64,000 nt of DNA from Desulfobacterales bacterium (GCA_018693105.1 JABHLN010000004.1:2327-66326), one strand, 5' to 3'; counted from the stretch's first letter, positions 2,258-51,250 are shown. Made by a program: numbers and translations. The notes: generated by a model not told the origin, from the letters alone.

Positions 2258-2370
2258 ATGTTATCCTATACCAATTAGTATCTATAATAAAAAACAATAT
2301 TATCTTATCCAACAGATTCCATCAGGTAATACTCATTATGTCAGGATGTGTAAAGAATATTATTCATATT

Positions 2371-2512
2371 GAGACCTTTGCATAACGTCCCTTTTTGTCC
2401 AATTTCTTCGTCATGCTCAAATTTTAATCCTCGAAATACTCAATGTATTCCTCTGGTTAAAATTTTCGCCTTCCTTGAACTTGAATAAAAATTGACGTTT
2501 TTCAAAGGTCTC
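2371..2512 (+). mobile_element. Family D/F long-hairpin MITE-like element, copy D1
   Basis: 142 bp imperfect palindrome, GAGACCTTTG...CAAAGGTCTC, with apex AATAC-TCAAT-GTATT. Flanked by direct ATATT at 2366-2370 and 2513-2517. The core aligns with the copies at 8978 and 10107. Confidence 0.8.
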
Positions 2513-2565
2513 ATATTACAATTGCTTTTTTGAGTGAGGAATATATTCACCACGGGTGAGCTTTA

Positions 2566-4188
2566 TTATAATTTGCCTGAAAACAGAGTGTCCAGATAGA
2601 ACTTTGTTATAGGATCATTCTTGTCGAAGTTGTGATTATTCTTATTATTCTTTTCAGATATTTCATTTCTTATATCTGTGGCGAGAACTTTACCAAGTTC
2701 GACTCCGAACTGATCAAAAGGATTAATTCCCCAGATAAAGGCCTCAAAGACGGTTCTTGCCTCGTAGAAGGAAAGAAGACGGCCGATATTGGCTGGTGAA
2801 AGATCTTCTATGAGAATTGTTGAAGAAGGGCGATTACCTGAAAAATATTTTGCTTTTTTTGGGTCGTCTTTTCCTATGGCAAGAGCCGAAGGCTGTGAGA
2901 TAAGGTTTGCCCAGAGTTCCTGGTGATTTGTTACCCCTTTTGATTTACTTTTATATTCTTTATATTGCGGGTTGACGACTCCGATAAAGTCAATAGGGAA
3001 ACTTCGCCCCTGGTGTGCAAGCTGGAAAAATGAATGCTGTGCATTTGTTCCCGGTTCTCCGAATATTATTAAACCGGAACTTACATCAAGCTCTTCCCCC
3101 GTCTTTGTTACCGATTTCCCGTTGCTTTCCATATAAAGCTGCTGAACATGGGGTGCAAGTTTAGAAAGGGGTGTGGCATAGGGAATTATACCCTGTGCCT
3201 GATAACCAAGAAAATTATTGTTCCATATACTTATAAGTGCAGCTATAAGAGGTAAGTTCTGTTCAGGTGGTGAATTATTTGCATGAAGGTCCATCTCTTC
3301 TGCCCCTTTAAGGAACTCTTCAAAATTTTCATATCCAATATAAAGGCTCAGAGGAACTCCGCCTACTGCAGAGGTTACACTATACCTTCCTCCGATATAA
3401 TCAAACATATGGAATGTTTCGAGTACAGGGCTTGCAGGATCGTCACCAGGGCTGTTCTTACTTGTAACGGTTACAAAATGTTTAGAAGGATCTAAACCTT
3501 TTCCTTCCATGAAAACAGTTGCCTGCTTTACATTTGCCATTGTTTCAGCAGTAGTATAGGTTTTTGATATTACAACCCAAAGTGTTGTTTCAGGTTCAAT
3601 TTCCGTAATGATAGCCCCGAAATTGTGAATATCAACATTTGCTAAAAAATGAATCTTTATGTTTCTGTCTGCATTAGCTTTCAATGAATGGGCAACAAAC
3701 TCAGAACCAAGGTAAGACCCGCCTATACCGATTACAACGATATGTTTAAACCGTTTACCTGTTGATCCTGTGATTTCACCTGAATGGACTTTTGTTGCAA
3801 ATGTTTTAATTTTATTTCTTACTTCACGTGTTTCAAGCATTATATTGATATCATCAACAATAATGGAGTCAGATGAAAAACTCCTTGTAGCTGTATGAAG
3901 TGCAGCCCTGTTTTCAGTATTATTTACTTTTTCTCCTTTTGTCATTGCATTAAATAATTCTATAGCTTTTCTATTTTCAGCAAGTTCAAACAAAAGGTCC
4001 ATTGTCATTTTGTTAACTCTATGTCGTGAATAATCAAAAAAAATATTGCTGCCTTTATTTGAAAAATTATTCAATCTTTTATTGTCTTTTAATAAATTTT
4101 TCAGGTGCATTTCAGGCTGATGCATCATATCTGCATGATGGGTCAGTTTTTTCCAGACAGGAAATTTAGTAAGTTTTTGATTATTCAT
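2566..4188 (-). CDS. pgi: glucose-6-phosphate isomerase
   Basis: PGI family throughout (e.g. GIGGSYLG, FGEPGTNAQHSF). I moved the start to M22 (MNNQKL), which follows a GAGGAGG RBS. The upstream 21 codons overlap a repeat fragment. Confidence 0.9.
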   Translation of the reverse strand: MNNQKLTKFPVWKKLTHHADMMHQPEMHLKNLLKDNKRLNNFSNKGSNIFFDYSRHRVNKMTMDLLFELAENRKAIELFNAMTKGEKVNNTENRAALHTATRSFSSDSIIVDDINIMLETREVRNKIKTFATKVHSGEITGSTGKRFKHIVVIGIGGSYLGSEFVAHSLKANADRNIKIHFLANVDIHNFGAIITEIEPETTLWVVISKTYTTAETMANVKQATVFMEGKGLDPSKHFVTVTSKNSPGDDPASPVLETFHMFDYIGGRYSVTSAVGGVPLSLYIGYENFEEFLKGAEEMDLHANNSPPEQNLPLIAALISIWNNNFLGYQAQGIIPYATPLSKLAPHVQQLYMESNGKSVTKTGEELDVSSGLIIFGEPGTNAQHSFFQLAHQGRSFPIDFIGVVNPQYKEYKSKSKGVTNHQELWANLISQPSALAIGKDDPKKAKYFSGNRPSSTILIEDLSPANIGRLLSFYEARTVFEAFIWGINPFDQFGVELGKVLATDIRNEISEKNNKNNHNFDKNDPITKFYLDTLFSGKL

Positions 4189-4232
4189 TTGATCCTCCTC
4201 TGTGAATATAAACAATTTAAAAGAGGTATATA

Positions 4233-4280
4233 AAGATTTTTTCTTTGCCACCCCAAGTTGACTTTTTTACGAGTTCATCA
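4233..4280 (+). repeat. Family B right-end fragment
   Basis: aagattttttctttgccaccccaagttgacttttttacgagttcatca matches the right arm and terminus of the B copies at 51092 and 49108. Confidence 0.7.
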
Positions 4281-4370
4281 AAGTTGAAAAGGCGGGGCAA
4301 AGCTTGTAAGGAATTGAGAATGTTTGTGACGATATAGTAATTATATGGGGAGGTCAAGCTATAGAAGCTA

Positions 4371-4697
4371 TTAATCCAATACTTTTCCGCTTCGGGCACG
4401 GTCTATTGATTCATCGAGAGTGGAACCCAGATCTACTCCCAGTTCTTTGGTCCTTTTCTTTGCCCAAAGACCTACATTCCTGGGATCGCCATTCAGACCT
4501 TCATCCGCATGACCCTGAGTGTTGAAATTATTAAGACGCTGAGATTCTGTTTTATGTGCAGTGCATCTTGAAATGATACGCTTAATACCATTTTCCCCGC
4601 AATGCTCACAACATACCAATGCTTCCTCTTCAGGTTTAAGGATAAGTGATGAAGTTATTTTATCACATGCCATGCATTCATATTCATAGATAGGCAT
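4371..4697 (-). CDS. FmdB-family zinc-ribbon protein
   Basis: Begins MPIYEYEC.AC, the typical FmdB N-terminus, with a second CxxC (CCEHCG). 108 aa. Confidence 0.7.
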   Translation of the reverse strand: MPIYEYECMACDKITSSLILKPEEEALVCCEHCGENGIKRIISRCTAHKTESQRLNNFNTQGHADEGLNGDPRNVGLWAKKRTKELGVDLGSTLDESIDRARSGKVLD

Positions 4698-4771
4698 ATT
4701 TAATTCCCGTACTGTATTGAACGTAAATGTTTAAGAATCAGATTAATGGGAAAATCTGATTGATACGTCTT

Positions 4772-4923
4772 TATGACTGGTAAGAAGTATAATCGATGGC
4801 TAAGTAACAATCTTTATATACAAGGCTCAGTGTTTGGCCAGACGTGAAGGCATACATGTAGTATGTCGAACGTTTGGCCAAACACTATAACGTAGTATAT
4901 GGAGACTTTTTACGACCCCATCA
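4772..4923 (-). mobile_element. Family A long-hairpin MITE-like element, full length, reverse orientation
   Basis: The reverse complement reads TGATGGGGTCGTAAAAAGTCTCCATATACTACGTTATAGTGTTTGGCCAAACGTTCGACATACTACATGTATGCC... Its terminal TGA (4921-4923) is the thiolase stop codon. Confidence 0.9.
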
Positions 4924-6162
4924 GGCTTTTAGTATTGTCACTGCAAGCGCAGCTTCCGTGTTGCTCACAGTTCCACCTGCATTTTCAGCAATTCCAATCT
5001 TTGCACCTTCTACCTGTCTTTCACCTGCAGCACCTGTAAGATGCATGTAAAGTTCAACTACCTGGCGCGCTCCTGTTGCTCCTATGGGATGTCCCTGGCA
5101 TTCAAGTCCTCCGGAAACGTTAACAGGTATTTTACCACCAAGTGTTGTATGACCTGCTTCGGTAAATGGTCCGCCTTCTCCTACCGGGCAGAGAAGAAGG
5201 TCTTCAATGGCAACGATTTCACCCAAAGCGGTTGCATCATGAACTTCGGCCAGATCAACATCTTCCGGGCCTATTCCGGCTCTTTCATATGCTTTTTTTG
5301 CAAGTTTGGTCATGGTGGGCTCTTCACCTTCTTTTCTCTCCTGACCACTTGCGACGCAACATGCTGATAACTCAACAGACTTGGATACTCCATTTTTTTT
5401 AGCAAAATCTTCAGAACAGATTATAACAGCAGCTGCACCGTCACCTATAGGAGAGCACATGAGGCGTGTCATAGGTCCTGAAACCACAGGAGATGCAAGC
5501 ACCTCATCAATAGTATAGCTATCCTGATATTGAGCTTTGGGGTTCATTGTTGAGTGGTAATGGTTTTTTGAAGCAACGGCGGCGAATTGTCTCTGTGTTG
5601 TTCCGTACTTTTCCATGTGCATCATTGCAGCAGATGCATATACATCCATGAATATTGTAGGCGTACCGGACTTCTGGGTGCTTGTAGCTTCCGATGTTTG
5701 GGTTTTTTCATGTTCCGCTTTCTGCTTTGCAAAGTTTTCAAGGAATAATTTTACCTCTTCTACATCCATGCAGCCTGTAAAAACGGGAAGTACTTTGCTT
5801 CGATCAGCAAAATACATTTTTTCCATACCGACAACCAGGGCAACATCCATTTCGCCAAGGGCAACCTGAGCCCAGGCTCCGTTTAATGCAAAAGCAGATG
5901 ATGAACATGCATTTTCAACATTTATTATAGGAATTCCGCCGATTCCCATGTTTCTCAAGACAGCCTGTCCGCGTATTGCATACTGTCCTTCAAGACAACC
6001 CTGGCCGACATTTCCCACCCATGCACCATTGAGATGTTCCTTAGTTATATCCGCATCATTTAATGCATCCGTTACAGCTTCTTTTACAAGGGATTTCAGG
6101 TTACGATCCATGTGCCGACCGAATTTTGTCATACCGCAACCGATTATTTTAACCTTACGCAT
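4921..6162 (-). CDS. thiolase-family protein (SCP-x / non-specific lipid-transfer-type acetyl-CoA C-acyltransferase)
   Basis: 413 aa. N-terminus is MRKVKIIGCGMTKFGRH, the active-site region is NACSSSAFAL, and the C-terminal region contains GGLECQGHPIGATG. AGGAGA RBS. Confidence 0.85.
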   Translation of the reverse strand: MRKVKIIGCGMTKFGRHMDRNLKSLVKEAVTDALNDADITKEHLNGAWVGNVGQGCLEGQYAIRGQAVLRNMGIGGIPIINVENACSSSAFALNGAWAQVALGEMDVALVVGMEKMYFADRSKVLPVFTGCMDVEEVKLFLENFAKQKAEHEKTQTSEATSTQKSGTPTIFMDVYASAAMMHMEKYGTTQRQFAAVASKNHYHSTMNPKAQYQDSYTIDEVLASPVVSGPMTRLMCSPIGDGAAAVIICSEDFAKKNGVSKSVELSACCVASGQERKEGEEPTMTKLAKKAYERAGIGPEDVDLAEVHDATALGEIVAIEDLLLCPVGEGGPFTEAGHTTLGGKIPVNVSGGLECQGHPIGATGARQVVELYMHLTGAAGERQVEGAKIGIAENAGGTVSNTEAALAVTILKA

Positions 6163-6192
6163 TATTTAATTTCTCCTTTGAGATGTTATTTT

Positions 6193-6335
6193 TGATGGCT
6201 TCGTAAAAAATATCCATCAACTGCGTTATAGTGTTTGGCCAGACGTTCGGCATACTATTTGTATGCCTTCACGCCCGGCCAAACATTATGCTTTACATAT
6301 TTAAGATGTTTACTTATAAAACATTTTTTATCTTA
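6193..6335 (+). mobile_element. Family A element, full-length left and core, degenerate right terminus
   Basis: TGATGGCTTCGTAAAAAATATCCATCAACTGCGTTATAGTGTTTGGCCAGACGTTCGGCATACTATTTGTATGCCTTCACGCCCGGCCAAACATTATGC... Similarity decays after TACTTA. It lies between two co-directional genes. Confidence 0.85.
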
Positions 6336-6343
6336 AATTTAAA

Positions 6344-8662
6344 CTATTCTTCAATTTCAGGTCCACTTCCACCTTCACGGAACCATGTTACAGGTCTGAA
6401 CTCACGGGGAACCATACCTTCCTGTTTGAATTTAGGATATCCAAGAACCATTGCATTACTGATTTTCCAGGGTTCACTTAAACCTAGTTTTTCTTTGATT
6501 TCCGGTGAGTTTTCCAATACCGCAATAAATCCCACCCAGCAGGATCCAAGACCGAGTGATTTTGCAACAAGTGTCATGTTTTGTCCACATATACCTATTT
6601 GTAAATCAGGCCCGGCTATTGACCTTGTATCAGCAGCCATTAAAATAATAGCCGGTGCATTCATTAATACCGGAAGATCACCGTTAGCTATACAGCCTAC
6701 ACCGCCTACTGCCACTCTCGGGTCCCAGTTTCCAACACTAGGATCAGCTTCATAGACAGGTATTAGTGCTTTTACAAGTGTATCGTTCGAATACGCAGCG
6801 TTTAACATGCCGACTTGAGCTACGGTTGCTTCCTGAAGTTCGTTAATAATCGATTTGTCTGTTATAGCGATAAATTTCCAAGGCTGGCAGTTCCCGGAAC
6901 TTGGTGCGAATCGCCCGGCTTCCATTACTCTTCTGATAAGAGGCTCGGGTACCGGATCATCTTTGTAGTTTCTTATACTTCTTCGTTCAAGAACAGTCTT
7001 TTCAATAATATTCCATTCTGCAGGATTCCCTTCTGCGTCTTTAGGTTCAAGAGGCATTTTAGCAGGGAGAGGATGGGGAGATGTTGCAAATGGTCCATCT
7101 GTAGCATGATAGGATGATACAATGGAAATCGCGTCAGTAGGACATGCTACCATGCAGTTATAGCAACTGAAGCATGCATAACCTTCTTTTAAAACAGGTG
7201 TTTTGTCTTCACTCTCTTCCCAGCATTTGAATGGGCAGTTCAGTATGCAAAGACCGCATTGGGTACATTTTTCGGCATCGCATTTCATAACTCCCATTTT
7301 TATACTATCACCAGGCCTGAAAACAGGTTCTACATCTTCCCATGTCATACCGCCCTCTACAGTAGCTGCAGGGGCAGCAGCCTGAACATTTTCAGCCTTT
7401 ATGTTCAGTATTCCACTGCCTTTTACCAGGTGTGTAGACCCTTCAATCATAAGTGATTCGTTTACACCATCTTCAATAAGACCTAATCTTGCATCGCGGA
7501 ATACCTGTTCGATGTGAAATTCTTTTGAAAGTCCGGGGCTGCCGAATATCTGAACAGCCTGACTTGCTACCCTGAATGCAACCTCTGTACAAAAAGTTTT
7601 TGCTGCAATACCATAATGTGTAGCTATCGGTCTTCCCTGCTTGATTTGCATACTATTATAAACAAGAACCCGACGGCCCAGGGAACGGGCAGCTTCTACT
7701 GAGGCAAACATGTCATAAAGTTTCAATTTGATGTTCTGATGTTCTATAATCGGTTTTCCACCCTGTACCCTGTTTTTTGCATAATCAAGGGCTTCTTCAA
7801 AAGCCGCCTGTGCTAAACCGGTAAAAAATATACCCACGCCGCCGTTAGCTGATCCAAGTTGTGTGTTTGAAAGTTGCCTAAACATTACTGGATCATCGGC
7901 TATCATCATGTATTTTGGAATACGAACATTGTCAAAATAGATTTCACCCTGATTCAATGATCTTTGTCCCATTTTAACAAGCGGTTTCCCTCTTGTAACA
8001 CCGGGAAGATCAAGAGGCATTACCACTATTCCTCCGCCTTGATTTCCCTTGGAAGGATCTAGTGAAACCCATATTACACCATGTGTTGCTATGGTTCCGT
8101 TGCTGACCCATGCGGCTTTCTGACCGTTAATAATATATGAATCTCCATCTGCAACTGCTGTAACTCCATATGCACATTTGGGATTTGTGGCGACTTCGCC
8201 TTCGAAAAATAATGAATCACCGCCATGGTCAGGCTCTGTTATACCCCAGCATCCGATCATTTTACCTTCTTTGTCGGCACAGAATTGTTTAACCAATTCC
8301 TGCATTTCCGGGGCAGGAGACATCATTGCATATAAATAGGGCTGGGAACTGGCAAGTATAGATGTTGAAAGACCAACATCGGCCCAGCCAAACTGTTCAA
8401 GGAGGATTGCCATTGTTAAAGGATCATCAATACCAAGACCTCCGAAATCTTCAGGGATGTTCATGATGGTATAATCCATTGCAATGGATTTTTTAAATGC
8501 ATCCCACAAAGGAGAATTATCAGCAATTACATCCTCCGGAGTGGCAAATTTGTCAAGCTCAACGCCAATAGGCCGTATTACTTCCGAGACAAATTTTCTG
8601 GTTTCTTTCCAGAAAGAAAAGTGTTCCTTGGTAAAATCAATGTTAAGTTCTCTTAATCCCAT
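6344..8662 (-). CDS. fusion protein: acyl-CoA dehydrogenase domain + 2x[4Fe-4S] ferredoxin domain + nitroreductase (FMN) domain
   Basis: 772 aa. Residues ~1-415 are ACAD-like (GCWGITEPDHGGD, IFGSPGLSKEFHIEQVFRDARL). The middle carries CTQCGLCILNCP and CFSCYNCMVACP. The C-terminus is nitroreductase-like (RRSIRNYKDDPVP, PSSGNCQPWKF). GGAGGG RBS. Confidence 0.85.
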   Translation of the reverse strand: MGLRELNIDFTKEHFSFWKETRKFVSEVIRPIGVELDKFATPEDVIADNSPLWDAFKKSIAMDYTIMNIPEDFGGLGIDDPLTMAILLEQFGWADVGLSTSILASSQPYLYAMMSPAPEMQELVKQFCADKEGKMIGCWGITEPDHGGDSLFFEGEVATNPKCAYGVTAVADGDSYIINGQKAAWVSNGTIATHGVIWVSLDPSKGNQGGGIVVMPLDLPGVTRGKPLVKMGQRSLNQGEIYFDNVRIPKYMMIADDPVMFRQLSNTQLGSANGGVGIFFTGLAQAAFEEALDYAKNRVQGGKPIIEHQNIKLKLYDMFASVEAARSLGRRVLVYNSMQIKQGRPIATHYGIAAKTFCTEVAFRVASQAVQIFGSPGLSKEFHIEQVFRDARLGLIEDGVNESLMIEGSTHLVKGSGILNIKAENVQAAAPAATVEGGMTWEDVEPVFRPGDSIKMGVMKCDAEKCTQCGLCILNCPFKCWEESEDKTPVLKEGYACFSCYNCMVACPTDAISIVSSYHATDGPFATSPHPLPAKMPLEPKDAEGNPAEWNIIEKTVLERRSIRNYKDDPVPEPLIRRVMEAGRFAPSSGNCQPWKFIAITDKSIINELQEATVAQVGMLNAAYSNDTLVKALIPVYEADPSVGNWDPRVAVGGVGCIANGDLPVLMNAPAIILMAADTRSIAGPDLQIGICGQNMTLVAKSLGLGSCWVGFIAVLENSPEIKEKLGLSEPWKISNAMVLGYPKFKQEGMVPREFRPVTWFREGGSGPEIEE

Positions 8663-8977
8663 TGTTACCCTCCTTGGAAATTTTTTTAGAAATCATAATG
8701 ATTAAAGTTATTAAACGGTAGTTTATGTGTGTTATATTAAATTTTGATGAATTATTATTTAATATTAAAGTTCACAATTTTATAAATTGGATCATTTTCT
8801 ATTAAGCCTATTTTAAATATTTATAATAAAAATAAATACCTTAAGCAGCTAACCGACTAACTGGATTGTTGACAGGTCAGCTGGTCGGTCATCAAGATTG
8901 ATAAGAAATCTTTATAAGAAAGTCAAGTCATTATTTTTATAAAAAACGGCTGATTATTATTATTGAATTGAGATTCG

Positions 8978-9123
8978 ATAGTGTTCATCCAGAAATGAGG
9001 ATTTTTGTTCAAGATCAAGACATGCGAAAAAAATAACCACAGGCTTATGTTTGATATTCCGAGGATTATTTTTTGAGCATAACGAAGATATTGGGAAGAA
9101 GACCATTTCAGGATGTGCACTAT
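8978..9123 (-). mobile_element. Family D/F element, copy F1
   Basis: Termini ATAGTGTTCATCCAGAAATG... and ...CATTTCAGGATGTGCACTAT are inverted. About 91% identical by hand count (10 mismatches over 117 bp) to the reverse complement of 10141-10256. Confidence 0.8.
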
Positions 9124-9273
9124 ATTAAGATGTTCTGATTTCACCTAATTTATATAAGAAAATATGAATAGTTGATTCAGAATTTGAGATGATTGTTTTT
9201 TACATGTTTCTATGCTAATTAGATAATAATAATATATCTTTTACAATAGAACGTATAAATATCAGAGCCTTTT

Positions 9274-11558: not shown

Positions 11559-13028
11559 ATGTTGAGATTAAAGAATGTTGATTTTAATAAAGATAAGGTG
11601 AAAACTTTTGTTATCCCGGTTTGTGAAGACAAAGATATACATGACAACAGATTAGTTTCTTCTATTAAAAAAGAAATATCCGGAATAAAAGAGTTTAAAG
11701 GCAGAAAGGGCGATGAAGTTACACTATATAATATATCTGGAAAAAAAATTGAGAAAGTGATTTTTATAGGTATCGGGAAGGTTGAAACTATCGATGCGGA
11801 ATCTCTTCGTGCATTTGCAGGTAGTGTAGTAAAAAAGTGTATTCAAAAAGGTTTTGGAGAAGTAATGATTTCTGTACCTTCTGCAGGTAAAATAAAGATT
11901 GAACTACAATTAATGCTCAAATCTTTAATGGAGGGAGGATATCTGGGAAATCATATCTTTGATAAATATAAGAAAGACAAAAAAAACAAACCATTAAAAA
12001 GAATTGATTTTTTTGTAAAAGCCGATATTGCAAAAAAATTCAACAGACTTTCATCCCATGTGAAAAAAATCTGTGACAGTACAATCATTGCCCGTGAATG
12101 GGTAAACACCCCGTCAAATGACAAAAAACCGGTGGATTTCACAAAATCAATTGCCGCATTAGGGAAAAAGGCAGGGCTAAATATTACCGTTTTAGATGAG
12201 AAACAGCTGAAAATGAAAAAGTTTGGTTCTCTGCTTGCAGTTGCAGCCGGAAGTATAAATAAACCTCGAATGGTTATAATGGAATACAGTCCAAAAAAAC
12301 CCAGGAAGACAGTTGTTCTTGTAGGTAAAGGAGTAACGTTTGACTCAGGAGGTATAAACTTAAAAACATCCGAAGGTCTTAATAATATGAAAATGGATAT
12401 GGCTGGTGCTGCTGCGGTTGCCTCAACCCTTATAGCCGTTTCAAATATAAAACCTGACATAAAAGTTGTTGGAGTATTGCCTATTGTGGAAAATATGCCT
12501 TCAGGTTCTGCAATCCGACCCGGTGATGTTATTAAAAGTTTTGAAGGTAAAACTATTGAAATAGGAAATACAGATGCTGAAGGAAGGTTGATTCTTATCG
12601 ATGCAATGGCATATGCAATTAAGAAGTATAAACCAAATGTTCTTATTGATGTAGCAACTTTAACCGGAGCGTGCGTTGTTGCTCTGGGTGAAAAGATTGC
12701 CGGTGTATTCTCTTTTGATAATAAAATAGCTGATTCAATTGTTAAATCCGGTGAACGAACTTTCGAGAGATGCTGGCAAATGCCTATGCCGAAAGACTAT
12801 AAAGAATTTCTTAAAAGTGAAATTGCCGATATCAAGAATATCGGGAATTCACGATATGGTGGTGCCATTACAGCAGCCATGTTTTTGTCGGAGTTCACAG
12901 GTGATACAAAATGGGCACATATAGATATTGCAGGACCTGCATTTATTAACAAGGGGACTGCATATTGCGGGGCAGGAGGTTCCGGATTCGGGGTCCGCCT
13001 TTTATGTGATTATTTAGAAAATATATGA
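11559..13028 (+). CDS. pepA: leucyl aminopeptidase (M17)
   Basis: M17 signatures VGKGVTFDSGG and NTDAEGRL. I chose the ATG at 11559 (8 nt after AAGGAG) over 11553 (2 nt after). Confidence 0.9.
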   Translation: MLRLKNVDFNKDKVKTFVIPVCEDKDIHDNRLVSSIKKEISGIKEFKGRKGDEVTLYNISGKKIEKVIFIGIGKVETIDAESLRAFAGSVVKKCIQKGFGEVMISVPSAGKIKIELQLMLKSLMEGGYLGNHIFDKYKKDKKNKPLKRIDFFVKADIAKKFNRLSSHVKKICDSTIIAREWVNTPSNDKKPVDFTKSIAALGKKAGLNITVLDEKQLKMKKFGSLLAVAAGSINKPRMVIMEYSPKKPRKTVVLVGKGVTFDSGGINLKTSEGLNNMKMDMAGAAAVASTLIAVSNIKPDIKVVGVLPIVENMPSGSAIRPGDVIKSFEGKTIEIGNTDAEGRLILIDAMAYAIKKYKPNVLIDVATLTGACVVALGEKIAGVFSFDNKIADSIVKSGERTFERCWQMPMPKDYKEFLKSEIADIKNIGNSRYGGAITAAMFLSEFTGDTKWAHIDIAGPAFINKGTAYCGAGGSGFGVRLLCDYLENI

Positions 13029-13056
13029 AGATTTTTTACTTTATACGAGTTCATCA
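13022..13056 (+). repeat. Family A right-end fragment with internal deletion
   Basis: TATATGAAGATTTTTTACTTTATACGAGTTCATCA. The pepA stop TGA (13026-13028) lies inside the conserved TATATGAAG block. Confidence 0.7.
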
Positions 13057-15213: not shown

Positions 15214-16662
15214 ATGAGTTTAAATATATATAATACATTGAGCGGGAATAAAGAACCATTTGAACCCTTTGAACCTGGAAAGGTAAAAATGTATGTCTGC
15301 GGCCCTACAGTTTATGATTCCTGCCATATCGGCCATGCAAGATCAGTGGTGGTTTTTGATGTTATAGTTCGTTACTTACGTGCAATTGGCTATGATACTA
15401 CTTACATCAGAAATTTCACTGATGTAGATGATAAAATAATTAACCGGGCAAATGATTTAGGTATTACATTAAAAGAGCTGTCCGAGAAATATATTGATGA
15501 ATTCAATGAAGACATGGATGCTCTGAATGTCAGGAGACCTGATTTCGCACCAAAGGCTACAGAGCATATTGATCAGATAATTGATGTAATCAAAAGACTT
15601 ATTGAAAAAGGCCACGCATACCAGGTTAATGGTGATGTTTATTATTCTGTAAATTCTTTTGAAGGGTATGGAAAACTTTCAGGGCGAAAACTGGAAGATA
15701 TGGAAGCAGGTGCAAGAGTTGATATTGATGAGAAAAAAAATAATCCGTTTGATTTTGCCCTCTGGAAATCTGCTAAACCTGATGAACCTTCATGGGATAG
15801 CCCTTGGGGTGAGGGTAGGCCCGGATGGCATATTGAATGTTCTGCCATGGGTCGTGAATTTCTTGGAGAAACGTTTGATATTCACGGTGGTGGTAAGGAT
15901 CTGATTTTCCCGCACCATGAAAATGAGATAGCCCAGTCTGAAGCGGCATTTGGGAAACAATTTGTCAGATATTGGGTGCATAACGGTTTTGTTAATATTA
16001 ATCAGGAAAAAATGTCAAAATCACTTGGAAACTTCAAGATGATAAAAGATGTGATAATGAAATATCATCCTGAAGCTGTGCGTCTTTTCCTTTTATCAAA
16101 TCATTACAGAAGTCCGATAGATTTTAATGATAAATCAATGGACGAATCAAGTGCAGGACTTGACAAGATATATACTCTGCTTCTCCGTGTTGAGAAAAGT
16201 ATCGGTTCCGCCAAAGATATTGAACCTGCAAATATTTATGAAAAATTCTGTGAAGCAATGGATGATGATTTTAATACAGCCCGCGGTATAGGTATAATTT
16301 TTGATTCTGTCAGAAGTATAAACCGTATGCTTGATAAAAATACTGCAGGGGCTTTGGATGACAATTTGTCTGTTGAAGAAAAAAAAGAAATCGGATCCGC
16401 CCATGCCGATATTCTCAGGATAGGCAATGTCCTTGGAATTATTACTGAATCACCGGAAGCTTATTTCAATAAAAAGAAAGAAACAGCTCTTGAGGATAAA
16501 TCGGTTGATGCTGAAATGATTGAGGAAATGATAAAAAAACGTTTCGAAGCCAGGAAAGCCAAAGATTTTGAAACTGCCGATAGCATAAGAGACAAACTTG
16601 ATTCCTTGAATATAACACTTGAGGATAGTCCTGAAGGAACTATTTGGAAAGTAAAAGAATAA
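15214..16662 (+). CDS. cysS: cysteine--tRNA ligase
   Basis: Class I motifs CHIGHARS and KMSKSLGN, plus GWHIECSAM. Confidence 0.93.
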   Translation: MSLNIYNTLSGNKEPFEPFEPGKVKMYVCGPTVYDSCHIGHARSVVVFDVIVRYLRAIGYDTTYIRNFTDVDDKIINRANDLGITLKELSEKYIDEFNEDMDALNVRRPDFAPKATEHIDQIIDVIKRLIEKGHAYQVNGDVYYSVNSFEGYGKLSGRKLEDMEAGARVDIDEKKNNPFDFALWKSAKPDEPSWDSPWGEGRPGWHIECSAMGREFLGETFDIHGGGKDLIFPHHENEIAQSEAAFGKQFVRYWVHNGFVNINQEKMSKSLGNFKMIKDVIMKYHPEAVRLFLLSNHYRSPIDFNDKSMDESSAGLDKIYTLLLRVEKSIGSAKDIEPANIYEKFCEAMDDDFNTARGIGIIFDSVRSINRMLDKNTAGALDDNLSVEEKKEIGSAHADILRIGNVLGIITESPEAYFNKKKETALEDKSVDAEMIEEMIKKRFEARKAKDFETADSIRDKLDSLNITLEDSPEGTIWKVKE

Positions 16663-16666
16663 ACCT

Positions 16667-16810
16667 TGATGGTGTCGTAAAAAGTCTCCATCTACTGCGT
16701 TATAGCGATTGGTCAGACACTCGACATACTGCATGTATGCCTTCACCCCTGATCAACCGTTATGCCTTGTATATGAAGATTTCTACTTAGTCATCGGTAC
16801 GAGTTCATCA
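16667..16810 (+). mobile_element. Family A element, full length
   Basis: TGATGGTGTCGTAAAAAGTCTCCATCTACTGCGTTATAGCG...GGTACGAGTTCATCA. Flanked by direct ACCT (16663-16666 and 16811-16814). Starts 4 nt after the cysS stop. Confidence 0.9.
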
Positions 16811-16857
16811 ACCTTAATACTTCTTTTTTTTATTTTATAGAGTTTTACTGTTATTAC

Positions 16858-20703: not shown

Positions 20704-20725
20704 TTTCCCGTTTATTGATTAACAA

Positions 20726-20879
20726 TGATGGCGTCGTAAAAAGTCTCCATCTACTGCGTCGTAGCGGTTGATCAGAAGTTCGACATACTGCATGTATGCC
20801 TTCACTCCTGATCAACCGCTATGCCTTGTATATGAAGATTTCTACTTAGCCATCGTTAGTACTTTTTACGAGTTCATCA
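20726..20879 (+). mobile_element. Family A element, full length
   Basis: TGATGGCGTCGTAAAAAGTCTCCATCTACTGCGTCGTAGCGGTTGATCAG...CTGATCAACCGCTATGCC...ACTTTTTACGAGTTCATCA. Flanked by direct ACAA (20722-20725 and 20880-20883). Confidence 0.92.
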
Positions 20880-21079
20880 ACAATAATAGTTAACTGATTT
20901 GACAAAATGGCTAAAATATTGATTATAGTATAATAACTTGTGTTTTATAACGGTTTTGCAGTGCTTGTTTAGAGAAATGTATACTTTTTTGAGCATTACT
21001 GAGTATGTTTATGAAAAAGTCATGGCGAATAGTACTGATTGATAATAATAAAGAATTGTTATATATAAAACTTCAAATA

Positions 21080-36224: not shown

Positions 36225-36231
36225 AGATTGA

Positions 36232-36289
36232 TTCCTTGTATATGAAGATTCTTATTTACCCATCGGATATATTTTTTGCGACGCCATCA
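36232..36289 (+). repeat. Family A right-arm fragment ending in an inverted left-type terminus
   Basis: TTCCTTGTATATGAAGATTCTTATTTACCCATCGGATATATTTTTTGCGACGCCATCA. Confidence 0.75.
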
Positions 36290-38737: not shown

Positions 38738-38792
38738 AAATGTATATGAAGATTTTTACTTAGCCATCGGTTATATTTTTTACGAGTTCATC
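38738..38792 (+). repeat. Family A right half
   Basis: AATGTATATGAAGATTTTTACTTAGCCATCGGTTATATTTTTTACGAGTTCATCA. Confidence 0.8.
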
Positions 38793-40905: not shown

Positions 40906-40995
40906 TGATGGCTTCGTAAAAAGTATATCCAATGGCTAAATAAAAGTCTCCATACAAAATGTATGGTTTTATGGGAGATTTTTGTATATACAAAA
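40906..40995 (+). repeat. Rearranged family A derivative
   Basis: TGATGGCTTCGTAAAAAGTATATCCAATGGCTAAATAA is a left terminus joined to right-arm-like sequence. It is followed by the short hairpin GTCTCCATACAAAATGTATGGTTTTATGGGAGAT. Confidence 0.6.
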
Positions 40996-42302: not shown

Positions 42303-42653
42303 ATGAGTATTCTTAAGAACATCGTAAAAAAAGGTAAAAATGCAACGCTATCAATAGGTCTCGAGAGTGTTTTTAAAAATATAGTAAAAGAATATGCTGA
42401 TTTATTGTATTTCAAATTTGATTCCAGTAAAAGTTTTCTTGAGTTTGACCTCATGTTAAAAGATGAACTTTCATCACTTAAAGTAAGAATAGAAAATTTT
42501 AATATTTTAAAAAAGAATAATCATCACTATATTATTATTCCAGAACTGACTACTTCAAGGGAATGGATTAATACTATAGCCAAAGAGTATATTGTTGATA
42601 AGGAAATATTATTACCTGATGAATATGCAACATTTTATGAAATGATAACGTGA
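42303..42653 (+). CDS. hypothetical protein
   Basis: 116 aa ORF, 34 nt downstream of the SprT-like gene, with no recognisable family. Its stop TGA is the first three bases of the next family A element. Confidence 0.45.
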   Translation: MSILKNIVKKGKNATLSIGLESVFKNIVKEYADLLYFKFDSSKSFLEFDLMLKDELSSLKVRIENFNILKKNNHHYIIIPELTTSREWINTIAKEYIVDKEILLPDEYATFYEMIT

Positions 42654-42806
42654 TGGCGTCGTAAAAAGTCTCCATCTATTGCGTTATAGTTGTTTATCAG
42701 AAGTTCGACATACTACATGTATACCTTCACTCCTGATAAACAATTATGCCTTGTATATGAAGATTTTTGCTTAGCCATCGGTTATAATTTTTTACAAGCT
42801 CATAAT
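42651..42806 (+). mobile_element. Family A element, full length (right terminus slightly degenerate)
   Basis: TGATGGCGTCGTAAAAAGTCTCCATCTATTGCGTTATAGTTGTTTATCAG...CTGATAAACAATTATGCC...TTTTTTACAAGCTCATAA. Confidence 0.9.
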
Positions 42807-44342: not shown

Positions 44343-44407
44343 AAACTCTGAATTTGTTTTGCTTATTCTGCCTACATCAAAACAAGAGCCTGTAGATATT
44401 ATTTTCT

Positions 44408-46194: not shown

Positions 46195-46386
46195 TTTTAC
46201 CCCCTTTCATATTTTTATATAATATTGAAATTATTGTAATTAGATAAAATCAGTAAATAAATGCTGTTCTATTTTGATAAAGATACTTATAGATTTATTT
46301 ATATATAACTCTTTTGAAATGAAGCGTCAATTGTTGATGATAATTTAATGGTAAATCTGATTATATGAGTTGTACATTTTCTGTAT

Positions 46387-47934
46387 TTAGAATGGAAAAT
46401 CATCGTTAATAAAATCCGATTTTTTTAACTGGCTGGATTCAGGCATTTCTGCTGTTTTATGCTCCGGGTTTCCTTCAACATAAATTGCTCTGACCGGTCT
46501 GACAGGACAGGGAAGTTCACATGCTCCGCATCCTATACAAATTCTCTCATTTACTTTTGGAATAGTTAGACTGTTTTTATAAGGAACCATTTTCACCGAT
46601 TTTGTGGGGCAATGCTCTGAGCAGGCTCCACAGGCTGTGCCTTTAGTGTAAACAATACATTTTTCTTTTAAAAATTTTGCAACTCCGATCTGGGTTGTCT
46701 TTTTTATTTCAGAATCAATTTCGACAATAGCACCGGTGGGACAAACCCTGCTGCATTTTACACATTCAAAGCTGCACCTTCCTGAATGGTAATCCATTAT
46801 CGGCTGCAGCATTCCTGAAAGTCCGTATTCGAATAATGATGGCTGAAGCACTCCTGTAGGACATTGGCTTACACAAAGATGGCATGCGGTGCATGATCGG
46901 CTGAAGTTTTTTATGTTTATTGAACCTGGAGGTGTAACAGGGGTTCTTTCATTTTGTTCAACAATGTTTTTAAAAGGATTTATTCCTGTTAACCCGAATA
47001 GTCCGGCAAAAGAAGCAAAAATCAACTTTCTTTTTCCGGTGTCAGTGACCGCAGGTTTTCTGTCGGCTTTTTTTCGGTAGATGTTTGGTTCATAATTTAG
47101 TGCAGATGACGGACAGGCATTAAAGCAGTTAAAACATGCTATACATCTTGTGAAATCAACGTTTTTTGTTGTGATATCAATGCAGCTGGCTTTACATGCT
47201 TTTTCACAGAGGCCACAGGTGCTGCATGTCTCTTCATCAAATTTAATTTTATAACCTGAAAACTTTGAGAAAAAAGCCAGTAGAGAACCGGCAGGGCAAA
47301 GTGTGTTGCAAAATGTCCTGCCGCCGGAGATCGACATCCATATGAGAATAAATAAAAATACGAATGAGAATATTACCGAAATAATACTTATACTGATGTA
47401 ATCAACCTGATAAAGGATAAAAATGTCGTAATTTTCAAGAATTGATGAGGCCGAATTGTTTATTGCAATTATAACCGGTTTTATCAAACTTGAAAATATC
47501 CTTCCAGAGTTACTGAACGGGTCAAGAATAGTTATCGGTAATACATATCCAAATAAAAAGGCAATAACAGAAAGAATTAATATTGAATACCTGGTCAGGT
47601 TTTTCGGTTCCTTAAACCTGAATCCTTTGTTTTTTTTTATTTTCCCTGAAATGCGGTAAATAACGTCCTGGAGGGTTCCAAGTGGGCAGATGGTTGAACA
47701 ATATAACCGGCCCCATAATAGTGTCACTGCCAATATAAAAATAAACCCTGAAGCTGCAAGACTAATGTTAGATGAGAAATATATAATTGAGGGTATGATT
47801 TGCAGATAAAGATAAATTTTGTTGAAGATTTCAGGGATTAAATTTCTGAAATCGGTAAATATAAGGGTAAACACGAAAAAAAGTAAAAGTGAAACAACCA
47901 CCCTTACTTTTTTTAAACGTGACATATTAATCAC
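46387..47934 (-). CDS. membrane-bound polyferredoxin (NapH/MauN-like 4Fe-4S binding protein)
   Basis: N-terminal TM helices with CSTICPLGTLQD and CNTLCPAGSL, then six ferredoxin motifs (e.g. CSTCGLCEKAC, CIACFNCFNACP, CIGCGACELPCP). The start is uncertain: GTG at 47934 or ATG at 47925. Confidence 0.8.
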   Translation of the reverse strand: MINMSRLKKVRVVVSLLLFFVFTLIFTDFRNLIPEIFNKIYLYLQIIPSIIYFSSNISLAASGFIFILAVTLLWGRLYCSTICPLGTLQDVIYRISGKIKKNKGFRFKEPKNLTRYSILILSVIAFLFGYVLPITILDPFSNSGRIFSSLIKPVIIAINNSASSILENYDIFILYQVDYISISIISVIFSFVFLFILIWMSISGGRTFCNTLCPAGSLLAFFSKFSGYKIKFDEETCSTCGLCEKACKASCIDITTKNVDFTRCIACFNCFNACPSSALNYEPNIYRKKADRKPAVTDTGKRKLIFASFAGLFGLTGINPFKNIVEQNERTPVTPPGSINIKNFSRSCTACHLCVSQCPTGVLQPSLFEYGLSGMLQPIMDYHSGRCSFECVKCSRVCPTGAIVEIDSEIKKTTQIGVAKFLKEKCIVYTKGTACGACSEHCPTKSVKMVPYKNSLTIPKVNERICIGCGACELPCPVRPVRAIYVEGNPEHKTAEMPESSQLKKSDFINDDFPF

Positions 47935-48854
47935 TAACTGATCCTGATTTTATTAATGTTTAATTTTTCAAGATTCATATTTCCTGTTCCCATTTCATGT
48001 GCATAACGGATATGAGGGATATCGGCTGGTAAAATACCAAAAATTTTAGCTGCAGCAGCATCTGCAGCAACAATATCAGTTGAGATTATTTGGGATCCGG
48101 CTTTAATCACATCATCGACAGACACGCCTCTGGGACCGTTTCTTTTCATAATATTGTATGCATCAACAATGTTTAAATCCGGTTTCCTGAAAGTTGGAAA
48201 ATCGGCGATGCATTGATGGAGGTTGTTTGAGTGCCAGAAACGCCTGTCCGTGTCCCAGACAATCCCCATCAGGTTTTTCATTGCTATAGTTAGTTTGGTA
48301 CTTCCGTGATTTTTAAGAATAGGTACGTTGATAAACACATCAGATTCAAGAATAAGCTCATGAACTTTTGCTGATTTTAAGGATTTACCTTTCCGGATTT
48401 TCACCTCATGGTAGTATTTTTCTCTATTACCCGGAACAATCTTTCCTTTTGCATCTATAGTTGCCTGCTTTATACCGCTTTTTTCATAACATTCTGTCCA
48501 ATTGTTGCATGTATTATCAAAGACATAAACCTGTTTTGCCCCTGCCTTATAGCAATGCTCAATTATTCTTTTAACCAGTTTAGGATTCGTATTTGCAGCT
48601 CTTTCCGGGGTGGCGGCCCAGCCTATATTCGGCTTTACAACAACTGTATTCCCTTTTTTAATAAATTTTTCCATTCCTCCAAGTGATTTAATGCCGCGAT
48701 CGAACATGGTATCCGGAGTTCCTCCCTTAATAGCTACAAGGTCATAAGGGGTATGGCTTTCAGCAAAAAGTTTCTCGTAACTTCCCGTGGCAAGTGTTGA
48801 TCCAAGGGTGATGCCCGCAGCCATGCTTTTTTTTAAAAACTCCCTTCTTTCCAT
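47934..48854 (-). CDS. DUF362-domain protein with Tat signal peptide
   Basis: MERREFLKKSMAAGITLGS (twin-arginine-like) and VVVKPNIGWAATPERAANTNPKLVKRIIEHCYKAGAKQVYVFD, typical of DUF362. Confidence 0.7.
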   Translation of the reverse strand: MERREFLKKSMAAGITLGSTLATGSYEKLFAESHTPYDLVAIKGGTPDTMFDRGIKSLGGMEKFIKKGNTVVVKPNIGWAATPERAANTNPKLVKRIIEHCYKAGAKQVYVFDNTCNNWTECYEKSGIKQATIDAKGKIVPGNREKYYHEVKIRKGKSLKSAKVHELILESDVFINVPILKNHGSTKLTIAMKNLMGIVWDTDRRFWHSNNLHQCIADFPTFRKPDLNIVDAYNIMKRNGPRGVSVDDVIKAGSQIISTDIVAADAAAAKIFGILPADIPHIRYAHEMGTGNMNLEKLNINKIRIS

Positions 48855-49107
48855 AAGGGCCTCCTTTCTCCGGATGAAGTTTTACCACTATTCTGGAGAA
48901 ACGCCATTGAACATCTGGATGTCTTACTATTTAATATTTAGCCAATGTCAGGGATAAAAAAATAGTATGGAGTATCTATTCCAAATGTTCAAAATTATTT
49001 CAGGTAAGAGTACGATTTAACAAAAAATATTACATGATCGGAAAAGTTATGTCAAACCGGTCTGATCAAAACCAGCCTATCTATTGACCATTATCTTCAA
49101 TTAACCA

Positions 49108-49242
49108 TGATGAACTTGTAAAAAATCAACTTGGGATGGCAAAGCAAAAAGTTCAAGATCAAGGCGCCGCAAATCCCGAGGAATGAAGCGTACTAATTGT
49201 ACGCTGTAGTGACGAGGGGTGTAGCGCAACGTAGATATTGAC
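49108..49242 (-). mobile_element. Family B element (left terminus replaced by the adjoining family A copy)
   Basis: TGATGAACTTGTAAAAAATCAACTTGGGATGGCAAAGCAAAAAGTTCAAG...AGCGTACTAATTGTACGCT...GTAGCGCAACGTAGATATTGAC. The reverse complement aligns with 51092-51221. Confidence 0.8.
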
Positions 49243-49384
49243 TCGTAAAAAAAACCGATGGATAAGTAGAAATCTTCATATACAAGGCATAGAGTTTGGT
49301 TCGGTGTGAAGGCATACGTGTAGTATGTCGAATACCTGGCCAAACTCTATAACGCATTAATGGAGACATTCTACGACGCCATCA
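49238..49384 (-). mobile_element. Family A element, full length, reverse orientation, abutting family B
   Basis: ...ACTCGTAAAAAAAACCGATGGATAAGTAGAAATCTTCATATACAAGGCATAGAGTTTGG...CCAAACTCTATAACGCATTAATGGAGACATTCTACGACGCCATCA. The terminal TCA (49382-49384) is the stop codon of the SPOR gene. Confidence 0.88.
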
Positions 49385-50881
49385 ACGTTTGACAACTTCA
49401 GGATTGAAAGACAACCCCCGGAGTCTTTTTATTTGTTCGGAAGTCTCTTTTTCCGAACTGAATGCTCCGGCAAGAAATCGAAGTCTTTTTTCGGAATTTT
49501 TAAGCGGTATTATGTATGGGATAAAACCTTTATGTATTAACTTTGAGTTGATATCTTTCATGTTATGCTCTTTATCAAAAACCCCTATCTGAATTGTATA
49601 AGGCATTTTAACTGTGATTGCATCTTTAAACATTCTATTATTAAGTTTATTCATCTCTTTTTTTGCTTCAGTATATGATCCGTAAAAACCGATGAAAACA
49701 CGATAAAAAACTCCTGTTTCCGGGATACGTGCCGGAGATGTGAAAGCAGGTTCTCCGGCACTTCTCAACTGGGTTGTCAGACGCTGTGATGTCTTTATAT
49801 CTTTTAAAGAACATACCTGGATAGTATAGGGGTAATAGCCGCTTTTATCAGGCTTATTTCCTGTTTTATTGTATAGCGTAGTTACTTCTTTTTCAGCTTT
49901 GTGAATAATTTTTTTGTACTTTTTTCTTTTAATAATTTTTTTCGCTACAAGTTCATTATGCCATGGCCTGCCTGTATTATAATGCTCCAGGTGGGCTTTG
50001 TATTCTGAAAGGTTGTCGCTTTCATTCTCATTGTTTAGAAATTTAATAGCTTTTTTCTGAATAAGTTTTGCCGCTGTAAAATCACCGGCTTCTGCATATG
50101 CTGCAGCCAGCACATCAAGAGATTCTGCATTCTTAATAAAACCGTACCCTTTTCTTGCCATCAATACAGCTTTTTTGCCATTTCTATGGCGGGAGTCAGG
50201 ACAGCTTGACAGTATTTTTGACAACTCAAAATATGCTTCAGCTGATAAGGGGTTAATTTCAATTGCTTTTTCAAAATCGGAGATTGCAGGATCATAATTG
50301 CCTTTTGCGTTAAAAATCAATCCCCGGTTGAAATGTACTTCCGAAAACCTCTGAATAATATCATTATATCCTGAAACATTTTTTTCAGAAATTTTTGAGT
50401 AGACAGGGTTTGATTCAATATCTTTTGTATAATCTGCTATTGCTCTGCCGTAGTTTCCTTTAGCAGCCCAGGATGCTGCACGGTTGTAATATGCCTCACT
50501 GTAATTAGGATTGATTTCTATGGCTTTTGTATAATCTGCTATTGCATTGTCGGTGTTGCCTTTGGCCGCCCATGCAACACCTCGATTGCAGTATGCATCG
50601 GCAAAACCAGGGCTAATCGTTATGGCCCGAGTGTAATCCTTTATAGCTTCATCATATTTACTTATATAGAAAAATGCTATTCCCCGGTTACTGATGGCCA
50701 CGAAATCATGTGGAATTGTTTCAATTGTTGTAGAAAAAGCTTTAATAGCATCTTCGTAACTCCCGGAGTTTAAATACTTAATCCCAAGTTCAAAACTGTC
50801 TTCAAAACAGTAGGATGTTCGTGGATGCAAAAGAAGTACAGATATCGTCAATAATAATATGAGTGTTATAAATTTTTTCAT
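49382..50881 (-). CDS. TPR-repeat + SPOR-domain (peptidoglycan-binding) protein
   Basis: Signal/anchor MKKFITLILLLTISVLLL, multiple TPR repeats (AYCNRGVAWAAKGNTDNAIADYTKAIEINP...), and two SPOR-like repeats at the C-terminus (YTIQVCSLKD..YRVFIGFYGSYTEAKK; YTIQIGVF). Start moved to M16. Confidence 0.8.
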   Translation of the reverse strand: MKKFITLILLLTISVLLLHPRTSYCFEDSFELGIKYLNSGSYEDAIKAFSTTIETIPHDFVAISNRGIAFFYISKYDEAIKDYTRAITISPGFADAYCNRGVAWAAKGNTDNAIADYTKAIEINPNYSEAYYNRAASWAAKGNYGRAIADYTKDIESNPVYSKISEKNVSGYNDIIQRFSEVHFNRGLIFNAKGNYDPAISDFEKAIEINPLSAEAYFELSKILSSCPDSRHRNGKKAVLMARKGYGFIKNAESLDVLAAAYAEAGDFTAAKLIQKKAIKFLNNENESDNLSEYKAHLEHYNTGRPWHNELVAKKIIKRKKYKKIIHKAEKEVTTLYNKTGNKPDKSGYYPYTIQVCSLKDIKTSQRLTTQLRSAGEPAFTSPARIPETGVFYRVFIGFYGSYTEAKKEMNKLNNRMFKDAITVKMPYTIQIGVFDKEHNMKDINSKLIHKGFIPYIIPLKNSEKRLRFLAGAFSSEKETSEQIKRLRGLSFNPEVVKR

Positions 50882-50958
50882 TTCCGCAAGGTGATCTTTT
50901 AAAGAATTTTCATATAAACTCGACATAACATTAATTAAGCTTTTGTATCGATATCATA

Positions 50959-51028
50959 ATATGTAGTATGTCGAGTGTCCGGCCAAACGCTCTAACACAG
51001 TATATGGAGACTTTTTACGACGCCATCA
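50959..51028 (-). repeat. Family A left half (apex to left terminus)
   Basis: ATATGTAGTATGTCGAGTGTCCGGCCAAACGCTCTAACACAGTATATGGAGACTTTTTACGACGCCATCA. Bracketed by a 28-bp direct repeat (50931-50958 and 51030-51057). Confidence 0.8.
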
Positions 51029-51091
51029 ATTAATTAAGTTTATGTATCGATATCATATAGTCATATTCATCTTCAATTCTTTTATTAAATT

Positions 51092-51221
51092 TGATGGCTT
51101 CGTAAAAAGTCTAATATCTGCGTTGCGCTACATGCCTCGTCACTGCGGCGTACGATAAGTACTCCTCATTCCTTGAACTTTTTATTTTGCCATCCAAAGT
51201 TCACTTTTTACGGGTTCATCA
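51092..51221 (+). mobile_element. Family B element, full length
   Basis: TGATGGCTTCGTAAAAAGTCTAATATCTGCGTTGCGCTACATGCCTCGTCACTGCGGCGTACGATAAGTAC...TTGCCATCCAAAGTTCACTTTTTACGGGTTCATCA. Flanked by direct AATT (51088-51091 and 51222-51225). Confidence 0.88.
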
Positions 51222-51225
51222 AATT

Positions 51226-51250
51226 TGATGGTGTCGTAAATCCCGCTTAA
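51226..51250 (+). repeat. Solo left terminus joined to an ATCCCGCT unit
   Basis: TGATGGTGTCGTAAATCCCGCTTAAGC. The unit AATCCCGCTATAGG recurs at 52408 and 54702. Confidence 0.6.

Follow-up and report, generated by a model that had tools for sequence, protein, structure and literature searches.

The window analyzed here, a stretch of 64,000 nucleotides from a Desulfobacterales bacterium (GCA_018693105.1, JABHLN010000004.1:2327-66326), contains repeated copies of small elements, several of which lie between short direct repeats. Were these direct repeats made when the elements inserted, how long are they, and what kind of transposase was responsible? A first-pass annotation, made from the sequence of the window, had sorted the elements into families A, B, and D and had read the repeats as target-site duplications of 4 bp, or possibly 5 bp ending in T, for A and B and of 5 bp for D. 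We analyzed the window together with the metagenome-assembled genome (MAG) that contains it, called G000 in the coordinates below, in which the window forms part of contig C106. This MAG comprises 3.24 Mb in 171 contigs, with 38% GC and 91.8% completeness. Our results indicate that the elements very probably represent two unrelated MITE families (MITE, miniature inverted-repeat transposable element), that the flanking repeats are insertion duplications, and that A and B are non-autonomous derivatives of an insertion sequence (IS) resembling IS1182.

Transposases with DDE chemistry make staggered cuts that give rise to target duplications. In the mechanism that we propose, a staggered cut at the insertion of each copy would leave the flanking duplication. 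A and B would insert into the AT-rich sequence TYAANNTTRA and would duplicate its central 6 bp (AANNTT) or, less often, 7 bp, whereas D would insert with a 5-bp duplication. The parent IS of A and B would be ~1.89 kb long, encode one DDE transposase of 579 amino acids, and share with them its 17-bp ends and 6-bp duplication.

Flanking duplications of families A, B, and D

Direct reading of the window confirmed the listed repeats, which are ACCT at 16663-16666 and 16811-16814, ACAA at 20722-20725 and 20880-20883, AATT at 51088-51091 and 51222-51225, and ATATT at 2366-2370 and 2513-2517. The one-mismatch flank pair at the copy annotated at 60962 and the T that follows each right-hand A/B repeat were likewise as described. 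With GATG...CATC as the element, each A/B repeat gains one A leftward and one T rightward and so becomes 6 bp. The boundaries of A and B are GATG...CATC and not TGATGG...CATCA; the T next to GATG and the A next to CATC are target bases. The earlier suggestion that this T is target sequence holds, but the proposed duplication length of 4 or 5 bp does not, as the duplication is 6 bp and sometimes 7 bp. For D, a true 5-bp duplication was borne out, as was its separation from A and B by its ends. The repeats behave as target-site duplications of non-autonomous, MITE-like elements, and there is no transposase within the window, both as annotated.

The elements measure 152 bp (A), 151 bp (B), and 142 bp (D). 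A and B terminate in imperfect inverted repeats of 18-20 bp (GATGGCGTCGTAAAAAGT ... ACTTTTTACGAGTTCATC). The left end of A (A-L, GATGGCGTCGTAAAAAGT) and its right end (A-R, GATGAACTCGTAAAAAGT) agree at 15 of 18 positions, and in both A and B the terminal module is present in two tandem copies at one end (GATGAACTCGTAAAAAGT..GATGGCTAAGTAAAAAT). BLAST identified 160 near-full copies of A and 48 of B, and the A and B hits together span 60 kb, or 1.9% of the assembly. A, B, and D show the features of MITEs, being small and non-coding, with terminal inverted repeats, a characteristic duplication, and many copies in one genome.

Tabulation of flanks across the genome supported the interpretation of the repeats as duplications. 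An exact direct repeat of 5-8 bp abuts GATG/CATC at 76 of the 108 end-to-end A copies (70%), with a length of 6 bp in 53 copies, 7 bp in 18, 5 bp in 4, and 8 bp in 1. Random pairing of left flanks with right flanks gave an expectation, per 142 copies, of 1.9 repeats of 6 bp, 0.4 of 7 bp, and 1.1 of 5 bp, ~3.5 in all. An independent set of termini, collected by regular expression, comprised 665 termini and 98 clean pairs and yielded exact repeats of 6 bp in 44 pairs and of 7 bp in 13, compared to 1.7 and 0.3 after shuffling. A looser definition of termini (≤2 mismatches) produced spurious pairs and was dropped for statistics, although the target logo was still drawn from its exact-6-bp subset. 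The target rebuilt from copies with an exact 6-bp repeat is a palindrome, T-Y-A-A-N-N-T-T-R-A, whose central AANNTT is duplicated; base counts (n = 34) were 26 T at position -2, 31 A at position 1, 32 T at position 6, and 28 A at position +2. At least 22 different hexamers occur among the exact-6-bp copies. Because the hexamers vary but their palindromic context is common, the repeat is made at insertion and is not element sequence. Two exceptional copies, flanked on both sides by CTTTTT (C85:4567) or by TTTTAA (C92:14389), match across the element at all six bases, which the 6-bp model accommodates without need of coincidences.

Some elements lie head to tail and have one hexamer in common (an X[el]X[el]X arrangement), as at 51087-51232 and 61115-61135 in the window and on contigs C56 and C161. 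At the first of these, a second GATGG end starts at 51227, and the hexamer at 51221-51226 is therefore common to the B copy and the neighboring element. The same pattern is found in other genomes, at L023:465-2567 and at L034, which reads AAAGTT-MITE-AAAGTT-IS-AAAGTT-MITE-AAAGTT; one preferred site appears to have been struck repeatedly. Variant A copies were also seen. Several carry a 27-bp insert, TGCCCGTAGGAAATGCCCTTGGGGTGC, at one internal position (G000:C132:12710, C148:11656, C167:9901, and C56:260-770), which may define a sub-family or may itself be a very small secondary insertion. Another A copy (G000:C137:3544-4748; flanks AATAGC / AATAGT) is split by a 1056-bp insert, which lies between A positions 61 and 65. 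The ORF (open reading frame) in this insert looks methyltransferase-like by eye, and the element may be a MITE with a captured passenger gene.

Family D has ends of the type GAGACCTTTGCAWAAC, with GAGACCTTTGCATAACGTC at the left and GAGACCTTTGAAAAACGTC at the right. Among 17 end-to-end D copies, the 5-bp repeats are exact in 7 (0.45 expected) and have one mismatch in 6 (0.92 expected). Of 121 genomes of the order, 38 have D-type ends, some of them >100 termini, and D loci taken from eight other genomes likewise show a 5-bp duplication. No D transposase was found next to any end; in D loci examined from 30 of the order's genomes, only ordinary genes adjoin the ends. A third repeat family, ~102 bp long with ends AGTGCCCATCCAGAAATGG...CATTTCTGGATGGACAC, occupies 9001-9094 of the window and ~20 other sites in the genome. 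The interior of D (positions 21-122) is 77-81% identical to this family, and the resemblance of the two interiors points to one core under two kinds of ends.

A candidate parent insertion sequence in other genomes

Family A also occurs in G006, which represents another genus of the same bacterial family, and in G019 (the MAG Desulfobacterales bacterium Tobar13.5m-G30), which belongs to a different family of the order. A DDE_Tnp_1 search of these two genomes recovered a 579-amino-acid ORF on G019 contig C90 that adjoins two GATG termini. This locus consists, in order, of AATTTT, a 1887-bp IS with ends GATAACTTCGTAAAAAC and GATGGCATCGTAAAAAG, AATTTT, a 198-bp A-type MITE, and AATTTT. The 579-residue transposase contains DUF772 (PF05598, residues 57-132) and DDE_Tnp_1_6 (PF13751, residues 405-520) domains, both above cut-offs, and its best NCBIfam match is IS1182 (NF033551, E = 2e-44, profile positions 36-484 of 488). 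Comparison with IS families, which the first-pass annotation had suggested, thus produced a partner resembling IS1182 that matches A and B in its ends and in its 6-bp duplication, solely in other genomes.

Species-representative genomes contain 24 related loci, whose hosts include Desulfobacterales and Desulfobulbales MAGs, Desulfobulbus alkaliphilus DSM 24258, Desulfovibrio sp. Dsv1, Ca. Thiosymbion, Desulfofustis sp. PB-SRB1, one Mariprofundaceae MAG, and one Chloroflexia MAG. All 12 complete IS copies (ten genomes, 1885-1931 bp) have 17-bp ends of the form GATGRnnnCGTAAAAAG, and 7 of the 12 are flanked by exact 6-bp duplications (AATTTT, AAAGTT, ACATTT, AAGACT, AAAATT, ATAATT, and ACATAT), each beginning with A and ending with T; ACATAT flanks the intact IS copy of Desulfobulbus alkaliphilus DSM 24258 (L046). 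In the Ca. Thiosymbion IS, both 17-nt ends are identical to A-L and A-R, and the ends remain unchanged next to more remote relatives of the transposase (~50% identity). Given the ends and the A...T target that it shares with A and B, its matching duplication length, and its adjacency to a MITE, this IS clade is evidently their parent. IS1182-family elements are ~1.3-1.95 kb long and have terminal inverted repeats (the ISfinder range), and the partner IS falls within this range in both respects.

The IS1182 family is heterogeneous, and some of its members target palindromic sequences (PMC5678879, citing Siguier et al.). One member, ISPse1 of Paracoccus, is 1653 bp long with inverted repeats (IR) of 16/16 and direct repeats (DR) of 4 (PMC3281130). 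The partner IS resembles IS1182-family elements such as ISPse1 and IS1272 in its single DUF772 + DDE_Tnp_1_6 transposase, short terminal inverted repeats, and palindromic target, but it duplicates 6 bp (7/12 copies) compared to 4 bp for ISPse1. Ends of the form GATGRnnnCGTAAAAAG were not found in the literature searched. MITEs derived from ISMac2, another IS1182-family element, have been described in Methanosarcina acetivorans, with lengths of 160-169 bp, 7-14 copies, IR of 25-26, and DR of 4 or 0 (PMC3852290). A and B are like these MITEs in their short, non-coding, IS1182-type derivation, similar size, and terminal inverted repeats, but differ in having a bacterial host, a copy number ~10x higher, a 6-7-bp duplication, and no autonomous partner in the same assembly. 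The Correia/NEMIS elements of Neisseria are ~100-155 bp long, intergenic, and co-transcribed, with 26-bp terminal inverted repeats and a TA duplication. A and B share with them high copy number, intergenic position, a hairpin, inverted-repeat ends, target duplication, and an orientation bias with respect to adjacent genes, but their ends, duplication length, and presumed transposase family are unrelated. No publication describing the A/B family was found in our literature search. A and B are an ordinary kind of element, newly described; what is new is the ends, the 6-7-bp duplication, the high copy number, and the uncultured Desulfobacterales host.

The transposase is present in 17 of the 121 sampled genomes of the order and was not found in the three genomes of the same family that were searched, the source MAG included. 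The sole PF13751 (DDE_Tnp_1_6) hit in the source MAG is an 86-amino-acid remnant in unrelated surroundings (G000:C24:23340-23501, minus strand), which matches the C-terminal part of the domain at 35 bits, has no GATG ends near it, and bears no similarity to the partner clade. Candidates for an autonomous form in this MAG were examined and rejected. Where termini are 0.5-8 kb apart, the DNA between them holds ordinary genes, multi-copy ORFs proved to be metabolic paralogues, and five termini with a common unusual interior belong merely to a longer MITE variant.

Insertion history and alternative explanations

A search with joined flanks within the genome revealed two paralogous empty sites. The first concerns the A copy at C24:2082-2233, which has inserted into a member of a different repeat family. 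When this site was rebuilt with one AATGTT, it aligned without gaps to three uninterrupted members with best scores of 42/38/37, compared to 35/31/30 with no AATGTT and 36/32/31 with two copies. The host repeat family (TAGAACCTATCTCAAAAAAACAT...GCATTTTTGAGAT) is ~150 bp long, with 71-74% identity among copies. For the copy at C92:14389-14540, a tandem paralogue has a single TTTTAA at the homologous point; reconstructions with one and with two copies tie, and zero copies is clearly worse. Nested insertions were also considered as empty sites and discarded, as the split A/B hits are tandem arrays, one cargo-carrying copy, and deletions, none of them cleanly nested. For empty sites of the IS itself, joined flanks of the IS loci L034 and L035 gave only diverged partial matches (67-82%) in four other IS-bearing genomes.

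The cysS-uvrB spacer, which holds an A copy in the window, is 198 bp long here; among 14 genomes of the same family, 10 have a spacer of 11-23 bp. A different genus of this family (L057; G007:C211) retains part of the right half of A at the cysS-uvrB junction, where it is fused to the cysS end; this remnant is either an old common insertion or the mark of a hot spot.

Several observations weigh against derivation of these copies from an IS1182-like parent by insertion. About 30% of A copies are without a clean repeat, and some 125-bp B forms that are without the outer module have no flanking repeat whatever. No orthologous empty site was present among public contigs encoding identical CysS or UvrC, which come from at least eight other samples or assemblies, include two NCBI MAGs, and are 99.96-100% identical over 2.5-7.8 kb; all carry both insertions. 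The next-closest CysS among 5.8 billion proteins is 71% identical, and thus there is no near relative in public data and exact orthologous empty sites are out of reach. In the source MAG, no cognate transposase was detected by protein search, by tblastn with five transposases, or with PF01609 and PF05598; with 91.8% completeness, 171 contigs, and repeats that often go unassembled, this absence is not proof that the organism is without one. The score of the partner transposase against NF033551 is 152.3 bits, under the curated cut-off of 270, and its NCBI label is merely 'transposase'. Finally, the putative link between MITE and IS consists of shared ends, equal duplication length, and adjacency in another genome.

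The duplication would be 4 bp (or 5 bp ending in T) if the outer T and A were part of the inverted repeat and the element were TGATG...CATCA. A T precedes GATG in 42 of 44 copies and an A follows CATC in 42 of 44, which makes them readable as element bases, and with this boundary the 98 clean pairs give 4-bp repeats in 47 cases and 5-bp repeats in 15. This boundary, however, leaves unexplained an A outside the left repeat and a T outside the right repeat. Moreover, in the CTTTTT and TTTTAA copies, the non-T or non-A bases at these outer places match across the element, as predicted by a 6-bp duplication but not by a terminal inverted-repeat base, and the autonomous IS copies have the same 6-bp pattern. 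We therefore consider the shorter duplication very unlikely. An explanation in which the flanking repeats pre-exist, either through site-specific recombination at an attachment-like hexamer or through REP-like hairpins that spread without duplication, would fit the strong target bias (AANNTT) and the neighboring elements that share a hexamer. It is nevertheless exceedingly improbable given that >22 different hexamers are used, that the paralogous empty site on C24 scores best with exactly one copy, and that the autonomous relative encodes a DDE transposase.

The identity of the mobilizing element can be questioned as well. Elements of the IS21 family make duplications of 4-8 bp, carry the two genes istA (rve-type DDE) and istB (AAA+ helper), and have ends that begin with TGT, in contrast to the GATG of A and B. 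The tandem terminal modules at one end of A and B recall the multiple terminal repeats of IS21, and IS21-family members with direct repeats of 7-8 bp, near the A/B length, are known (PMC3281130). However, the only elements between A/B-type ends (GATGGCGTCGTAAAAAG) have a different end sequence from IS21 and carry a single DUF772 + DDE_Tnp_1_6 gene without an istA/istB pair, and the source MAG contains a single broken hit to the rve domain, on C62; we give mobilization by an IS21-type element almost no credence. It is also conceivable, but unlikely, that the elements are still mobile and are driven by an IS copy in the organism that was not assembled or binned. The MAG is incomplete and fragmented, 70 of the 665 termini lie ≤300 bp from a contig end, and multi-copy ISs are often lost from MAGs. 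Against present mobility, no two A copies are identical, with the closest pair at 98% and a mean pairwise identity of 86%, both insertions recur in the contigs from the other samples or assemblies (at least eight), and a search of two other family members for the transposase found none. Because the A copies have diverged to this extent, we regard them as fossils, and we infer that the copies here were formerly spread in trans by the transposase of an IS1182-like element that has since been lost.

Copies in the window and their neighboring genes

The elements of the window are listed below, together with their flanks, the stop codons formed at their junctions, and the members of the repeat family that hosts the C24 copy. 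As the first-pass annotation had noted, the remaining copies lack a clean duplication; those at 42652, 58793, 4776, and 49109 have degenerate ends or mismatched flanks. In all, ~11 further copies or solo ends in the window have no clean repeats. The mosaic at 49109-49383, whose reversed A part is without its first 5 nt, looks like the product of recombination or deletion between adjoining elements. Rfam contained no family matching these elements, and its only hits in the window were two tRNAs.

Table 1. Elements, flanking sequences, and junction stop codons in the window, with members of one further repeat family of the MAG
Feature	Position	Strand	Description
Family A MITE	16668..16809	+	142 bp; 10 bp deleted internally near right end; in cysS-uvrB spacer
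AACCTT, 6-bp duplication of 16668 copy	16662-16667 / 16810-16815		Left copy overlaps final base of cysS TAA stop
Family A MITE, full length	20727..20878	+	152 bp, 95% identity to consensus; downstream of uvrC
AACAAT, 6-bp duplication of 20727 copy	20721-20726 / 20879-20884		
Family B MITE	51093..51220	-	128 bp, internally deleted form of 151-bp element; outer and inner terminal module at one end
AAATTT, 6-bp duplication of 51093 B copy	51087-51092 / 51221-51226		
Family D MITE	2371..2512	+	142 bp; ends GAGACCTTTGCATAACGTC...GACGTTTTTCAAAGGTCTC; GAGACC...GGTCTC; ATATT at 2366-2370 / 2513-2517
Family A MITE	60963..61114	+	152 bp, 93% identity to consensus
Flanks of 60963 copy, ATGTTT / ATATTT	60957-60962 / 61115-61120		5/6 match; further end GATGAACCCGTAAAACC begins at 61121
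Family A MITE	58793..58943	+	151 bp, 86% identity to consensus; no clean duplication (ACATTT / AAAATT)
Junction TGA (target T + element GA)	58792-58794		Stop codon of ORF 57619-58794
Family A MITE	42652..42803	+	Degenerate right end, no clean duplication
Junction TGA	42651-42653		Stop codon of ORF 42303-42653
Family A MITE	4776..4922	-	85% identity to consensus; degenerate A-R end
Junction TGA (TC of element + target A)	4921-4923	-	Stop codon of ORF 4921-6162 (minus strand)
Composite element	49109..49383	-	275 bp; outer B-type end and B positions 1-106, fused with an A copy in reverse (A positions 147-1)
Flanks of 49109 composite, AACCAT / AACGTT			4/6 match
Junction TGA	49382-49384	-	Stop codon of ORF 49382-50926
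Family A copy, right end lost	52191..52324	+	A positions 1-134, 87% identity to consensus
Family A copy, right end lost	6194..6316	+	A positions 1-122, 80% identity to consensus
Solo right half of A	38741..38792	+	A positions 101-152, 98% identity to consensus
Similar solo ends	4226-4279, ~13020-13055, 36231-36288, 40907-40954, 50961-51027, 54667-54703, 54785-54813, 58997-59031		
Members of TAGAACCTATCTCAAAAAAACAT...GCATTTTTGAGAT family	G000:C24:~2040-2330, C1:10593-10742, C117:45540-45679, C105:29645-29787		

None of the 108 end-to-end A copies lies inside an ORF of ≥150 amino acids. Long ORFs that read into an element end (n = 57) stop at the junction TGA, formed by the last T of the target and the GA of the element, in 44 cases; another 7 stop in the second frame and 2 in the third, within the first 65 nt. 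As the target often contains TTGA, insertion rebuilds the stop codon and leaves the protein unchanged. Orientation is biased among the 108 copies, with A-L facing the 3' end of a gene in 41 cases and the 5' end in 7, compared to 14 and 18, respectively, for A-R (Fisher p = 1.5e-4); 14 long ORFs read into A-L and none into A-R. The A copy at 20727..20878 is predicted to fold into a long hairpin (z = -6.55). A co-opted role at the 3' ends of RNAs would be consistent with this orientation rule taken together with the stable hairpin of 150 nt. Co-option of family A as a terminator, mRNA stabilizer, or operon punctuation, as proposed for Correia/REP, is a tentative suggestion that we regard as doubtful.

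Biologically, this is an ordinary case of MITEs. The analysis supplies the correct boundaries, duplication length, and target for repeats that make up ~2% of the genome of an uncultured sulfate reducer and that recur across Desulfobacterales. Gene callers will misplace stops and starts at these elements, and the elements fragment assemblies; they could serve as strain-typing markers, if polymorphic copies exist. The A/B family is also tied to a concrete transposase clade, a distant and unnamed branch of IS1182 that makes 6-bp duplications at a palindromic target.

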